A DNA stretch of 64,000 bases from positions 177,878 through 241,877 of the forward strand of contig JAHFMN010000001.1 of the NCBI GenBank assembly GCA_023264445.1. Direction: 5' to 3'. Below are positions 30,900-53,601 of this stretch, piece after piece (position 1 is the stretch's first letter; the number at the start of each line of letters is the position of its first letter). This stretch comes from Candidatus Kaiserbacteria bacterium (GTDB taxonomy: Bacteria > Patescibacteriota > Minisyncoccia > Phycocordibacterales > Phycocordibacteraceae). Under the pieces are notes generated by a model that saw only the letters and a program-made list of their open reading frames with translations, had not been told where the DNA came from and made no database searches. Both the position numbers and the translations under genes were made by a program.

Positions 30900-31247
30900 T
30901 TAAAAAGGTATCGTCGTCTGCTCCGCTTGCTTCTTCACTGATGGAGATGCGGCGTCGATAATTTCGATGTGCGCAGGCGTATTTACAGACTCTGGGAGCG
31001 CGGAAGCGGCGCCCACACCTGCAAGATTCTGGTTCCCGGGCTCCCCCGCCACCGCGCTCGGTTCCTGCCCCGTTGCTCCGGCAAATGAAGATTCCTGGAT
31101 GGAGAACACGCCCGTACTTAAAGAACCCGCGAGCCATACAAGCGCGATGAATGCTGCGCCGACAGTCGCTGAAGCAAACGCAACTTGCTTGCGGATGTGA
31201 TGCGGCTTCCCCTTCACGAGCTCAATGTGATCAAAAATAGTTTTCAT
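30900..31247 (-). CDS. hypothetical membrane protein
   Basis: 115 aa. One TM helix. Sits between the MBL-fold hydrolase and gyrA in the same orientation. Confidence 0.45.
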   Translation of the reverse strand: MKTIFDHIELVKGKPHHIRKQVAFASATVGAAFIALVWLAGSLSTGVFSIQESSFAGATGQEPSAVAGEPGNQNLAGVGAASALPESVNTPAHIEIIDAASPSVKKQAEQTTIPF

Positions 31248-31253
31248 GGCCGA

Positions 31254-31895
31254 TTAGGGTGTTACCACCAGTATACTTCCATCCAGCCCGGCCAAATCCT
31301 TTTTCTTCAGGGTGAGCTTGTCTACTTTCTGGCTCCCGTTCCCCGCCTCTTTCAGGAAGGCATCGAGCGCTTTCGGCTCTCCTATGCCGCTCCAGTGCAT
31401 CGGGACGATGATTTTTGGCTCAAGCGACACTGCAAGCTCATGCGCTTTTGCAGGAGAGAGCACTCCATCGCCGCCGATCGGCACAAAAAGCACATCTATC
31501 TCATCAATACTTTCGCGGGCCTCTTTGGAAAGTTCAGCATCGGCAAGCGCGCCCAGATGCACGAGTGTCATGTCCTCCAGTTCTACGCTGTAGATGGTAT
31601 TGACGGCCTCGGTCTCGCCTTTTCCAAGGCCGTATTTGCTTTTTGAAAGGAATCCTTGAATGACGACACCCTGCCGCTCGTATTCGCCGGGGCCGGTAAT
31701 CGCGAACGGTTTCTTCTCGCCGTAGCTCACCTCTTCAATACCGTTCATGTCTGGGTGGTCGCGCGAGACAAGCGCGATGTCCGTGCCGAAACGGACAGCA
31801 GGGAGCGAAGCGCCCTTGGCTATGGGATCAAAGACGAGCGTGAGGTCGCCAAACGTCACCTTAAAACACTGCCCGCCGTGGTGGGTTATGACCAT
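31254..31895 (-). CDS. MBL-fold metal-dependent hydrolase (beta-lactamase-like, UlaG/Lactamase_B_3 type)
   Basis: 213 aa. ITHHGGQCF...SRDHPDMNG...VPMHWS metal-ligand blocks. Confidence 0.7.
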   Translation of the reverse strand: MVITHHGGQCFKVTFGDLTLVFDPIAKGASLPAVRFGTDIALVSRDHPDMNGIEEVSYGEKKPFAITGPGEYERQGVVIQGFLSKSKYGLGKGETEAVNTIYSVELEDMTLVHLGALADAELSKEARESIDEIDVLFVPIGGDGVLSPAKAHELAVSLEPKIIVPMHWSGIGEPKALDAFLKEAGNGSQKVDKLTLKKKDLAGLDGSILVVTP

Positions 31896-31976
31896 ATAAT
31901 TGCCCCTATTTTAGCATAAAACTCGCGTGTATGAAAGCGCCTTTTGATCTTCTTTTATAAGACCATTTGGGGGCTA

Positions 31977-32004
31977 TTGACAATAGACGAGGTGGGTGTA
32001 TAAT
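31977..32004 (+). promoter_or_regulatory. strong sigma70-type promoter
   Basis: TTGACA (31977-31982), 16 nt, TATAAT (31999-32004). Confidence 0.55.
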
Positions 32005-32078
32005 GTCTAGCAGACGTTTCGAGGAACATTTCGAAAACTTTGGGCTCGTCTCCCGCAAATTAAAAAGGAGAAAGTCTC

Positions 32079-32210
32079 ATGCACGGACCTTCGATGACGA
32101 ATCAACTGAGCGCAACGCGCAATACCTTTATGGACATCCAGGGCGACAAGGACGCGATCGACAACGCGCTCGGCCACGGCGGCCGCGCGGTCAAGACCGG
32201 CGCCGGCTGA
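32079..32210 (+). CDS. orphan 43-aa small protein (hypothetical)
   Basis: MHGPSMTNQLSATRNTFMDIQGDKDAIDNALGHGGRAVKTGAG. SD AAAGGAGAaagtctcATG. Promoter upstream and terminator downstream. Not in the ORF track (shorter than 60 aa). Confidence 0.4.
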   Translation: MHGPSMTNQLSATRNTFMDIQGDKDAIDNALGHGGRAVKTGAG

Positions 32211-32274
32211 CCATCGCCGGGCGGCGCGGGGCTGACAACGCAATACGGCAACACTGCCAGCCCTAACCAAGAAC

Positions 32275-32308
32275 GCGGCCATCCTACGGGATGGCCGCTT
32301 TTCCTTTT
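32275..32308 (+). terminator. rho-independent terminator
   Basis: gcggccatcc-tacg-ggatggccgc + ttttcctttt. Confidence 0.65.
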
Positions 32309-32496
32309 GTGCACAAGACTTGCGAAACGCAGTTGAGCCGAAAAATAACTCTGATACAGTCAAATGTGGATGCCCCCTTACCAAGGATCGGCGTCCACCG
32401 CTATACCTTCTAACAAGGAGGTGTCGATGAAACGCGAGCGACAGCCGGGGCAGGCGAAGAGCGCCTGAATCCCGAGCCATCAGATCTTCCCTCTTC

Positions 32497-32524
32497 AAGG
32501 GGTCCGTGAGGACCCCTTTTTTTA
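32497..32524 (+). terminator. rho-independent terminator
   Basis: aaggggtcc-gtga-ggacccc + ttttttt. Confidence 0.65.
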
Positions 32525-32529
32525 TTCTA

Positions 32530-32558
32530 TTGAGAATCAACCTCTCCTATGCTATAGT
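32530..32558 (+). promoter_or_regulatory. sigma70-type promoter of rpsA
   Basis: TTGAGA, 17 nt, TATAGT, about 95 nt upstream of the rpsA ATG. Confidence 0.5.
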
Positions 32559-32651
32559 CCCCACATCGCGTGCAGGAAAAGTAGATACTGGCTAACCCTC
32601 GGCGCTGCAAGGCACGAGTACCAGCTTCGAAAATCCGCACCGCTTTAATAC

Positions 32652-33770
32652 ATGTCTGAAGAGAAGAAGGCCGCTGTGCCTACTCCGACTATTCATTTGC
32701 CCGAAGGCCACCCGATGGCTGGCCTTGTTGATTCCATCCCGACTCCGCCATCCTCGGGCGACCTCGTCGAGGGCACTATCATCGCGATGAATCGCGGCCG
32801 CGTTTACATCGACCTGCCGCCGTTCGGTACCGGCCTTATTTATGGCCGCGAATATCTAAACGCCGCCGACGTCTTGCGCAAGGCGAATCCGGGGGACGTT
32901 ATCAGTGCAAAGGTCGTGGATCCTGCTGGGCGCGATGGCTACATCGAGCTCTCCCTGAAGGAAGCACGCCAAGCGGCTATCTGGGGCGAGGCGGAAACGG
33001 CGATTCTTTCGCAGACGGCATACTCGCTCACGGTGGAAGAAGCGAACAAGGGCGGACTCATCCTCTCCTGGCAAGGCATCCAAGGATTCCTCCCCGCTTC
33101 ACAACTCTCCAAGGAGCACTACCCGCGCGTGCCGGAGGGCGATAAGGACAAGATTCTCGGTGAACTCATGCAGCTCGTCGGCAAGCCGCTTTCGGTGCGC
33201 ATCATCACTGCGGACGCAAAGGAAGGAAAGCTCATTTTCTCGGAACGCACTGAAAACGAGGCCGAAGAGAAGGCGTCTCTCATTGATAAGTATCAGGTCG
33301 GCGACATCGCGGAGGGAGAAGTGACCGGCGTCGTAGACTTCGGCGTCTTCGTGAAGCTTGAGCCGGGGCTTGAAGGCCTCGTGCACATCAGCGAGCTTGA
33401 TTGGGGTCTCGTGGAGGATCCGCACATGTTCTGCAATGTCGGCGACAAGGTCAGGGTCAAGGTCATTGAGATAAAGGATGGAAAGATCTCCCTCTCCATC
33501 AAGGCACTGAAAGAGAATCCGTGGCACACCGCCGCCGAACGCTACTCGAAGGGTATGGAAGTGCCGGGCGTCATCATCAAGTACAACAAGCACGGCGCGC
33601 TTGCATCTATTGAAGAAGGTGTCGCGGGCCTCGTGCACGTGAGCGAGTTTGAATCACCCGCACAACTGCGCGAGACGCTCGAGCTTGGTAAGACGTATCC
33701 CTTCACCATCGCTCTCTTTGAGCCGAAGGAGCAGCGCATGACGCTCACATACGCAGGAAAGAAGAAATAA
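32652..33770 (+). CDS. rpsA: 30S ribosomal protein S1 (four S1 domains, short form)
   Basis: 372 aa with repeated S1-domain blocks (GDVISAKVV..., GDIAEGEVTGVVDFGVFVKL, GDKVRVKVIEI..., GVIIKYNKHGALASIEEGVAGLVHVSE). Confidence 0.85.
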   Translation: MSEEKKAAVPTPTIHLPEGHPMAGLVDSIPTPPSSGDLVEGTIIAMNRGRVYIDLPPFGTGLIYGREYLNAADVLRKANPGDVISAKVVDPAGRDGYIELSLKEARQAAIWGEAETAILSQTAYSLTVEEANKGGLILSWQGIQGFLPASQLSKEHYPRVPEGDKDKILGELMQLVGKPLSVRIITADAKEGKLIFSERTENEAEEKASLIDKYQVGDIAEGEVTGVVDFGVFVKLEPGLEGLVHISELDWGLVEDPHMFCNVGDKVRVKVIEIKDGKISLSIKALKENPWHTAAERYSKGMEVPGVIIKYNKHGALASIEEGVAGLVHVSEFESPAQLRETLELGKTYPFTIALFEPKEQRMTLTYAGKKK

Positions 33771-52515: not shown

Positions 52516-53601
52516 TTATTTGAGCGTAACGGTCGTTTGAAGCGGCCGTTCTGTTTGTATGACAACCGTGAAAGATAATCGCTCGATGACACGTCCGTCA
52601 ACGGTCTCGACATCCACCCGCCACTTCCCCGCCTCGGTTATCGGAAGCGAGGAATAGCCACGATATCCGTTGTCGCGACCCCCGGCGATTGAGTAGGCAA
52701 TTGATGCCTTGATTATCCACTGCTTCTTGACCTCATCATATCGCTGCCAGCGATGCACGATATCCGTTCGAAGCGTCGTCGGTGCGAAGACAGAACTGTA
52801 GGCGGAAAGCGAATCCCCAAGGAAAAGATGCATGGTCGGCGAGAAACCTAGGTACCGGACCTGCCAGGGCTCTGGTTCGCTCGTTGCAAGATACGCGCCC
52901 GGGACCCGCCACACCGAGTGGTAAATGCCGGCCGCCGAGGAAGAGAGTGGCAAAGGTGGTAGGAGGTTGGTGAAGTAGAAGAGGTTGATAAGGACTAGTA
53001 CGACGCATGCGCCCACGCGAACCCGCCAGACATCAGCAAGGAAACGATCACGCGCGAGTCTTCGGAGTAAGGCGGTGAAGATCGCAAACACGACGACTGC
53101 GAGCACGCCGCTCTCGAGAAACGTCAATGTCCCTATGGTACCGGTATATATCGGCACAGTAAAAATCGCATAGGAGTAGAGTGCGAAGAAGAAAAGGACG
53201 CTCGTAAACACGAGCCGGGCGTGATATTGGTGAAAGTATTCGCTTCCGAGGAATACGAGGAAAAGGAAGAGAAGAAAGGGCCATGAGGCACCGAGGACCG
53301 CGGAACGCCCATAGAAAATAACAAAGCCGCTCCAGAATCCGCCAAGCGCAAACTGGACCGCGATGGGGAGCAGGAGACGCAGACGAGAAAGTATAAGGCC
53401 CGGATCTGGACGCGATTCTATCCAATGCAGAACCGGAATCGAGATGAAGCACACGGCAGCATACGCAGCGAAGAGTACTTGCGTCTGCCAGAGATCGACA
53501 CGCACGAAGACCAGATTATCGACAATGAATCCGGCAACCATCGCGCCCCCGGAGAGATGCCGCTCGTACTGCCGTATCCATGCAAAGAGTCCTTGAAACA
53601 T
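52516..53601 (-). CDS. polytopic membrane protein with C-terminal soluble domain (hypothetical)
   Basis: 361 aa with about 8 TM helices. The start codon is 3 nt from tRNA-Phe. Confidence 0.55.
   Translation of the reverse strand: MFQGLFAWIRQYERHLSGGAMVAGFIVDNLVFVRVDLWQTQVLFAAYAAVCFISIPVLHWIESRPDPGLILSRLRLLLPIAVQFALGGFWSGFVIFYGRSAVLGASWPFLLFLFLVFLGSEYFHQYHARLVFTSVLFFFALYSYAIFTVPIYTGTIGTLTFLESGVLAVVVFAIFTALLRRLARDRFLADVWRVRVGACVVLVLINLFYFTNLLPPLPLSSSAAGIYHSVWRVPGAYLATSEPEPWQVRYLGFSPTMHLFLGDSLSAYSSVFAPTTLRTDIVHRWQRYDEVKKQWIIKASIAYSIAGGRDNGYRGYSSLPITEAGKWRVDVETVDGRVIERLSFTVVIQTERPLQTTVTLK

Follow-up and report, generated by a model that had tools for sequence, protein, structure and literature searches.

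Small proteins of 50 amino acids or fewer have been documented in bacteria by ribosome profiling. They are encoded by short open reading frames (ORFs) that fall below the usual length cut-offs and that have their own promoter, Shine–Dalgarno (SD) sequence and terminator, and many are taxon-restricted orphans, with no homologues or domains and a single predicted helix. Stem-loops at the 5′ end of a transcript are well known as mRNA stabilisers, as in the 5′ untranslated region (UTR) hairpin of Escherichia coli ompA and the aprE and ermC leaders of Bacillus subtilis, whilst dual-function small RNAs (sRNAs) such as RNAIII (delta-haemolysin), SR1 (SR1P) and SgrS (SgrT) join a short ORF to structured UTRs. 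Hypervariable effector families, including class II bacteriocin precursors and peptides of the conotoxin type, combine conserved expression elements with fast-evolving coding parts and, like variable islands, display birth and death, tandem copies and secretion of some members. Here, we describe a 43-codon ORF and its expression signals, together designated unit 1 (positions 31977–32308, + strand), in a 64,000-nucleotide stretch of DNA (the window) from a Candidatus Kaiserbacteria bacterium (contig JAHFMN010000001.1, positions 177,878–241,877). Unit 1 lies between a gene encoding an MBL-fold hydrolase and rpsA (encoding ribosomal protein S1), on the rpsA strand and with gyrA as a further neighbour. 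We consider it rather probable that unit 1 is a real gene for a small protein, transcribed and translated on its own, and that it belongs to a family of cassettes at this hotspot.

Taxon-restricted small-protein genes are a known kind, and unit 1 shares the features of the group listed above; the hotspot and the cassette family are the added discovery. Unlike the ribosome-profiled proteins, that of unit 1 is predicted to be translated and its gene sits in a defined hotspot, where equivalent cassettes carry unrelated coding parts. As in the ompA, aprE and ermC leaders, a stem is found at or next to the (here predicted) +1 position, its pairing conserved with compensatory changes. The cassette stem differs from those leaders in being short (5–6 bp), in enclosing a loop of variable length (13–35 nt), in having a 5′ end that is predicted and in the conservation of its 5′ arm and following bases (GACGYUC) beyond what pairing needs. 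With a transcript of ~300 nt, a 43-codon ORF and structured UTRs, unit 1 also recalls the dual-function sRNAs but lacks an identified base-pairing target or seed and has no match in Rfam. The conserved expression elements, fast coding parts, turnover, tandem copies and partial secretion of the hypervariable effectors are all seen in the cassettes; unit 1, however, has neither a signal nor a leader peptide and no accompanying processing, export or immunity genes, the cassette ratio of nonsynonymous (dN) to synonymous (dS) substitution is around 1 or lower, and no known defence or toxin family is matched.

The features of unit 1 are as follows.
31977–31982, + strand: −35 hexamer TTGACA, part of a site matching the sigma-70 consensus at 12/12 positions.
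31999–32004, + strand: −10 hexamer TATAAT, 16 nt beyond the −35 hexamer, read from the sequence.
~32011–32012, + strand: predicted transcription start, placed from the −10 geometry.
32012–32051, + strand: predicted 5′-terminal stem-loop, from sequence, folding and stem covariation in the cassettes.
32012–32016 with 32047–32051, + strand: outer stem, AGACG pairing with CGUCU, read from the sequence.
32017–32022 with 32031–32036, + strand: inner hairpin, UUUCGA pairing with UCGAAA, in both minimum-free-energy and centroid folds.
32065–32071, + strand: SD sequence AAGGAGA, optimally spaced with 8 nt from GGAG to the start codon.
32079–32210, + strand: ORF of 43 codons plus stop, MHGPSMTNQLSATRNTFMDIQGDKDAIDNALGHGGRAVKTGAG, with ATG at 32079 and TGA at 32208–32210.
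32211–32274, + strand: 3′ untranslated spacer with a GGGCUG/CAGCCC hairpin predicted from sequence and folding.
32275–32308, + strand: intrinsic terminator with a 10-bp stem (8 G–C pairs), loop UACG and tail UUUUCCUUUU.

A first-pass annotation of the window had proposed a promoter, SD sequence, 43-amino acid ORF and terminator here, and all four are present at these positions. It had also considered such near-consensus signals unusual for the genome. They exceed chance expectation: the promoter is the sole 12/12 match in the 64-kb window (0.02 expected; 2 of 100 shuffled sequences had one) and the only one among 18 promoter-like sites at 24–42 kb to reach that score, and the terminator (stem GCGGCCATCC-TACG-GGATGGCCGC at 32275–32298, then TTTTCCTTTT) is one of the three strongest in the same 24–42 kb. 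The predicted full-length transcript folds more stably than its own shuffles (z = −2.8). Among the promoter-like sites at 24–42 kb there is no convincing antisense promoter over the ORF, the only antisense candidate near unit 1 (32009–31980, a 9/12 match) being directed away from it. The SD sequence in the window is predicted to be paired (probability of being unpaired 0.01), but conserved SD sequestration of the riboregulator type was rejected because pairing across the family does not exceed that of shuffles (0.27 in 22 cassettes versus 0.24 in shuffled leaders; Wilcoxon p = 0.66).

The 43-codon frame probably codes for protein. Using a codon model trained on 30 long ORFs of the window, we obtained an in-frame log-odds score of +21.7 bits (+0.52 bits per codon) for the ORF, against −32 and −17 bits in the shifted frames of the same region; 43-codon windows of real genes score 17.3 ± 8.6 and off-frame windows −25 ± 12, whilst shuffles of the ORF score −11 ± 10, with none of 2000 reaching +21.7. 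The longer ORFs that overlap it (177 and 70 amino acids antisense, 99 amino acids sense) were ruled out as real genes by their uniformly negative codon scores, the sole positive stretch of the 177-amino acid ORF being the mirror of the 43-codon ORF. An in-frame TAA at 32061–32063 excludes a longer N-terminus. The G+C content at third codon positions (GC3), previously described as typical of the genome, is in fact unusually high (0.84 versus a mean of 0.62), a value reached by 1.3% of 43-codon windows from real genes; that of rpsA (0.70) is shifted from the genome mean in the same direction. The ORF is also called by gene callers in public assemblies, and the DNA of the unit is 100% identical on four assembled contigs, the identical locus occurring in assemblies ERZ27279942 and ERZ27279977 and in runs SRR14366796 and SRR14366791.

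The predicted product is a hydrophilic protein of 4.4 kDa (isoelectric point 6.7; grand average of hydropathy (GRAVY) −0.59) with the tryptic peptides NTFMDIQGDK and DAIDNALGHGGR. Analysis of the 43-residue sequence detected no signal peptide, membrane segment or hydrophobic stretch, and the product is presumably cytoplasmic. AlphaFold2, run on the single sequence, predicts a helix at residues 6–32 followed by a glycine-rich tail with moderate confidence (a pLDDT of 76); a one-helix model gives a fold search too little to work with.

The peptide is an orphan. A word-indexed search of 5.8 billion proteins returned the query itself alone, and in clusters at 90% identity the peptide forms a cluster of one member, against 32 for the neighbouring S1 protein and 26 for the MBL-fold hydrolase. 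Exhaustive phmmer searching of 1.84 billion representatives yielded the query plus three long repeat proteins (P0032–P0034) that we judge to be spurious, having been scored over 5–6 stretches that included the FG-GAP-like TFVDIDGDGDFDAFVGHG; a relationship to FG-GAP or calcium-binding repeat proteins was likewise rejected, as the 43-mer has no Pfam match and at most one partial motif. Scanning JGI metagenomes and IMG/VR with the peptide gave no match, nor did blastn against phage genomes, and a full-text literature search found nothing on such cassettes in Patescibacteria. A match of the transcript to a known non-coding RNA family, named earlier as a finding that would speak against the gene, was not found in Rfam: at the gathering threshold, Rfam 15 has no match in the spacer between the MBL hydrolase gene and rpsA (only 11 tRNAs in the 64-kb window), at E values up to 10 the spacer gives only terminator-like chance matches (≤17.7 bits), and nothing was found in 20 related loci. 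ARAGORN detects no tRNA or tmRNA in the spacer.

To place unit 1 in context, we collected related loci (denoted below by L numbers): 80 species-level loci found via S1 (82–93% identity) and 80 metagenome loci found via the MBL-fold hydrolase (80–92%). The gene order of 115-amino acid ORF (− strand), MBL-fold hydrolase (− strand) and rpsA (+ strand) is kept in nearly all 160. The corresponding features of the window are these.
31254–31895, − strand: MBL-fold hydrolase gene.
31923–32544, no strand: lineage-specific insert of ~620 bp holding units 1 and 2, delimited by alignment to relatives.
32530–32558, + strand: conserved rpsA promoter, TTGAGA-17-TATAGT with an upstream TG.
32652–33770, + strand: rpsA, ribosomal protein S1.

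In 112 distinct relatives the MBL–rpsA spacer measures between 131 and 2382 bp; it is ≤200 bp in 62 of them and carries an insert in the other 50. Between species, the inserted DNA is mostly unrelated in sequence. In the window the spacer is 756 bp long, and only its first ~27 bp and last ~105 bp (the latter being the rpsA promoter and leader) align to relatives. The DNA of units 1 and 2 (~31923–32544) is absent from all 160 related loci, and tblastn and blastn searches of these loci gave no credible match to either unit. Conservation of the peptide, put forward earlier as a check, is thus not found: there is no credible homologue, and the orthologous spacers contain either no insert or unrelated sequence. 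The hotspot ORFs that were tested have no Pfam or PADLOC match, the 118-amino acid protein of L007 being likewise an orphan.

What is conserved at the hotspot is an architecture. Analogous cassettes are present in the same spacer of ~20–25 relatives, always on the + strand. Each has a −35 element (TTGyAA), an extended −10 element (TGnTATATT) and, after a 7-nt gap, the motif RGACGYUCY, the first 5–6 bases of which pair with RCGUCY 13–35 nt downstream; a strong SD–ATG lies 47–106 nt from the 5′ arm in every one and is followed by an ORF of 12–118 codons and an intrinsic terminator. Unit 1 has the corresponding elements (TATAAT, the same 7-nt gap, AGACGU...CGUCU with five pairs, ATG at +67), although its promoter and stem match the family model described below only weakly; the spacer sequence of its promoter differs from those of the relatives and the promoter is nearer to consensus than any of theirs. 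In 511 kb of related loci the layout pattern has 16 matches, of which 13 fall in the spacer (5% of this DNA), all 13 on the + strand; in the window there is one match, at unit 1, where ~0.75 would be expected per shuffled window. Across 20 cassettes including unit 1, the six-pair 5′ stem is 90% paired and shows A–U/G–C exchanges at two pairs. Its covariation score of 0.29 was reached by none of 500 shuffles (0.19 ± 0.03), and sliding the partner columns lowers pairing to ≤55%; the 3′ arms behind these figures were picked by complementarity.

From 19 relatives, with the window excluded, we built a covariance model of the promoter and stem. It found 24 matches at E < 0.05 in 505 kb, all of them in the hotspot and on the + strand and 11 of them outside the seed. 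In the window it scores unit 2 highest, over the promoter and stem of that unit (32330–32397; 18.5 bits, E = 2e-4), whilst a match at 53285–53345 on the − strand lies inside a 361-amino acid ORF and was dismissed as chance. The order A-type unit (the unit 1 type), B-type unit (the unit 2 type), rpsA promoter is seen in the window and also in L017, L010, L012, L118 and L008. Because of its position, its strand, the AGACGU...CGUCU motif at the predicted +1 and this recurrent A–B order, membership of unit 1 in the hotspot cassette family is probable, although not proven, and the homology is architectural only: the arrangement is kept across relatives where the sequence of the reading frame is not. 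Two other interpretations of shared sequence were set aside. The AGACG inverted repeat is disfavoured as a DNA operator by its variable arm spacing (13–35 nt) and by the coexistence of the stem variants AGACG/CGUCU and AGGCG/CGCC in the single genome L017, and a CUAACC motif shared between the 3′ ends of cassettes and the leader of rpsA, which would have pointed to a decoy, was rejected because CUAACC is not enriched in inserts (6 versus 7.1 expected).

The ORFs of the cassettes stay open and codon-biased while their amino acids evolve almost neutrally. For 17 of the 18 A-type ORFs with 25 codons or more, no other frame outscores the annotated one, which reaches a gene-like 0.3–0.7 bits per codon, a range that also includes the ORF of unit 1. 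Several long members (L007, L031, L015, L061, L132, L098) have clear signal peptides, the same slot in some relatives being occupied by ORFs of 100–118 amino acids with signal peptides. A fragment M..HSPP is common to the short members L027, L029, L046 and L155, and P(D/N)GDGIT (PDGDGIT) to L007, L010, L053, L132 and L017; in both, the residues are retained although the codons differ synonymously. When the cassette peptides were compared by blastp-short, the window peptide had no match at E < 0.05. The cassette shared by L098 and L101 encodes a 59-codon ORF with the same start, stop and length in both, even though the two copies are separated by ~0.33 substitutions per site and by three indels, each of them in frame. 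Its dN is 0.32 and dS 0.34 (dN/dS 0.95), against flanking dN/dS ratios of 0.03 for S1, 0.13 for the 115-amino acid ORF and 0.18 for the MBL-fold hydrolase (dS 0.31–0.34). For the L008/L010 ORF the values are dN 0.38, dS 1.06 and dN/dS 0.36, with flanking genes at 0.06–0.09. The nearest relatives of the window lie at dS ≥ 0.9, and with ORFs evolving this fast an orphan peptide is to be expected, so a recent horizontal origin need not be invoked. Separately, the L098 and L101 spacers (1264 and 979 bp) differ by whole cassettes, yet flanking dS is only ~0.33: one B-type unit is found in L101 only and one 115-amino acid signal-peptide unit in L098 only.

Unit 1 had been described as a self-contained micro-gene. 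It does form its own transcription unit but it is not isolated, being followed at once by a second mini-unit.
32330–32525, + strand: unit 2, recognised from sequence, signal scan and the covariance model.
Promoter of unit 2, + strand: TTGAGC-N16-TGaTACAGT.
32366–32374 with 32390–32398, + strand: 9-bp 5′ stem.
32415–32421, + strand: SD sequence AAGGAGG.
32427–32468, + strand: ORF of 13 codons, MKRERQPGQAKSA, codon score ~0.
32497–32518 plus T7, + strand: strong terminator.

The tiny ORF of unit 2 resembles MILHRRHRPGQAKGA of L101. Units of this B type follow the A-type ORF at spacer positions 823–891 in L010, 183–254 in L151, 362–442 in L012, 593–661 in L017, 302–382 in L118 and both 897–944 and 1273–1323 in L008 (all numbered within the MBL–rpsA spacer). 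They have an SD of the form GGAGGAUG and a tiny ORF with HRMTK, the nucleotides CAUCGCAUGACCAAA are nearly invariant, and a block, CGAGCGAAAGCAGACC, is conserved 3′ of the stop in L010, L151 and L118. Codon scores of B-type units are near zero or negative, and such a unit may be an sRNA rather than a peptide gene.

Taken as an A-type gene, unit 1 might work as follows. Its perfect sigma-70-type promoter, which would be constitutive and very strong, would start a monocistronic mRNA of ~300 nt at ~32011/32012. By analogy with the ompA, aprE and ermC leaders, the AGACG...CGUCU stem-loop would most likely protect the 5′ end and stabilise the message, and the strong, optimally spaced SD and biased codons would make for efficient translation of the ORF before the intrinsic terminator ended the transcript at ~32305, insulating the unit from its neighbours. 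The product would be a 4.4-kDa hydrophilic peptide with one predicted helix and a Gly-rich tail. Unit 1 would occupy the leading, A-type position in a family of cassettes found at one insertion hotspot in Kaiserbacteria, whole cassettes being gained and lost between close species whilst expression signals are kept and amino acids drift near-neutrally. The earlier proposal of a highly expressed small protein accordingly divides in two: the frame-specific signal speaks for a protein, whilst a high level of expression is suggested by the signals and codon bias only. Read from its sequence, then, unit 1 is probably a real, translated, taxon-restricted small gene. That the cassettes are dispensable, turn over and evolve fast speaks for an accessory rather than a housekeeping role, and the peptide might, very tentatively, bind a partner, possibly in interplay with a host or phage.

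Several observations weigh against this interpretation. As the 43-codon ORF has no homologue, selection on it is not directly measurable, and the best peptide similarity among the relatives is faint: the window peptide has MHGPS, and its GDKDAIDNALGHGGRA has 9 residues out of 15 in common with DGDGITNAIGGGGNA of L053 (tblastn E = 0.3). The cassette pattern was defined after unit 1 had been seen, and unit 1 scores no more than 5.4 bits with the covariance model, with E = 5.6 over the whole window and 0.066 over the spacer alone. The gene is evidently dispensable, since 62 of the 112 relatives have no cassette at all. In the cassette shared by L098 and L101, both the 5′ and the 3′ UTR are more conserved than the coding part, which hints that the RNA itself may matter, and the near-neutral dN/dS of the family is also what a translated ORF without function would show. 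The last two points lead to alternatives that we regard as unlikely, neither more so than the other. On the first of these, the transcript would be mainly a regulatory or otherwise functional RNA, whether an sRNA or a molecule of dual function in the manner of RNAIII and SR1, and the ORF secondary or incidental. The best-conserved cassette parts are indeed non-coding, above all the 5′ stem next to the promoter, where GACGYUC is invariant; the conserved L098/L101 UTRs and the folding of the unit 1 transcript relative to shuffles (z = −2.8) point the same way, and B-type units are RNA-like, with codon scores of ~0 and nucleotide conservation that extends beyond the tiny ORF. Against this, codon bias in unit 1 is strong, frame-specific and confined to the 43-codon ORF, every cassette keeps a strong SD–ATG, the ORFs stay open and the long ones have clear signal peptides, and dS in the L098/L101 ORF equals that of its neighbours, indicating no extra constraint on synonymous sites; there is also no Rfam match and no identified target. 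The second holds that the ORF is expressed but functionless, either the decaying remnant of a longer gene for a secreted protein or a proto-gene riding on a conserved expression module. A dN/dS approaching 1 (0.95 for L098/L101), cassettes that come and go between close species and are missing from 62 of 112 relatives, the orphan status of all hotspot ORFs (no Pfam or PADLOC match) and a length of 43 amino acids with only a degenerate PDGDGIT-like motif, compared with 100–118 amino acids and signal peptides in relatives, would all fit. A perfect promoter, an optimal SD and a GC3 of 0.84 would not, however, be expected to last without selection, and the L098/L101 ORFs have retained the same length, start and stop through ~0.33 substitutions per site, with their indels in frame.

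We attach far less weight to two further explanations. The co-orientation of unit 1 with rpsA just downstream, an orientation shared by the cassettes of all relatives, might suggest a leader peptide or upstream ORF controlling rpsA transcription or translation, but two strong terminators intervene (32275–32308 and 32497–32525), rpsA has a conserved promoter and structured leader of its own, and the majority of relatives, although they lack a cassette, keep that same promoter and leader, making such a role very improbable. More improbable still is a precursor of a secreted peptide, be it a double-glycine bacteriocin or a ribosomally synthesised and post-translationally modified peptide (RiPP), or else a type I toxin. 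Small size, a strong promoter, GHGG at residues 32–35 and a family evolving as fast as effector peptides do are in its favour; yet cleavage after GG at residues 34–35 would leave a core of eight residues, and among the neighbours (gyrA, the 115-amino acid ORF, the MBL-fold hydrolase and rpsA) there is neither a C39-peptidase/ABC transporter nor a gene for modification or immunity. A type I toxin, for its part, is at odds with a GRAVY of −0.59, the lack of a membrane helix and the lack of a convincing antisense promoter over the ORF.

Other features of the hotspot and its surroundings can be noted alongside the small-protein gene that we favour. Some inserts are larger: that of L077 (spacer positions 1–2382) has five ORFs of 78–142 amino acids, that of L080 (1–1750) encodes two predicted membrane proteins of 221 and 210 amino acids, and L045 and L084 (about 135–980) have a 281-amino acid ORF; the ORFs tested from this set have no Pfam or PADLOC match. 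At the left edge of the L006 insert (spacer positions 31–76) is a perfect 20-bp inverted repeat, GCCCGCGCGATAGTGTTTTT...AAAAACACTATCGCGCGGGC, degenerate copies of which lie near the MBL gene start in L017, L029, L046 and L064. Related sequences (CGCGCGACAGC...CTATCCCCACC) occur in other species, the window having a faint remnant only, and the repeat might serve as a terminator in both directions or represent a repeat element. The 115-amino acid ORF (30900–31247, − strand) is syntenic in nearly all relatives yet fast-evolving, with 35–63% identity and a dN/dS of 0.13–0.34 versus 0.03–0.06 for S1, and has no Pfam family on record.

With 7.5 bits, the rpsA promoter (here 32527–32567, + strand) can be aligned to that half of the cassette model which represents the promoter, and the cassette promoters may derive from it or share a lineage consensus with it. 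Beyond it lies a conserved and structured 5′ leader (32560–32651) containing a long hairpin of 14 pairs (32585–32627, + strand) that is 85.7% paired across 22 relatives, with compensatory changes at ten pairs and a covariation score of 0.556 versus 0.207 ± 0.025 in shuffles (0 of 500 reach it). Invariant parts of the leader are the internal-loop GCUAACCCU and AGUAC and the 3′ stretch CGAAAAUCCGCACCGCU. No SD precedes the rpsA ATG (32652) and the leader has no Rfam match; from its sequence, the hairpin is a candidate S1 autoregulatory element.

The genomes of the candidate phyla radiation (CPR) are small and their gene content has mostly been judged from ORFs of more than ~60 amino acids; a strongly expressed gene of 43 codons would serve as a reminder that part of their biology lies hidden in small genes. 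At the fixed hotspot adjoining rpsA, expression signals are kept whilst the encoded peptides change almost freely, and the cassettes, the hairpin at their 5′ end and the B-type units are candidates bearing on how small genes originate, persist and are lost. It is possible, though we hold the idea only tentatively and think it doubtful as it stands, that the MBL–rpsA spacer is a nursery or arms-race locus in which a conserved expression module is duplicated, lost and reloaded with ORFs that stay open and codon-optimised whilst drifting or diversifying near-neutrally. Were that so, some products would be secreted and others, like that of unit 1, cytoplasmic, with the B-type RNA a potential partner, and unit 1 would capture one moment in the continuing birth and death of small genes, or in the diversification of effectors, within a CPR lineage of episymbionts. 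The cassettes may also bear on host- or phage-interaction factors of these uncultivated organisms.

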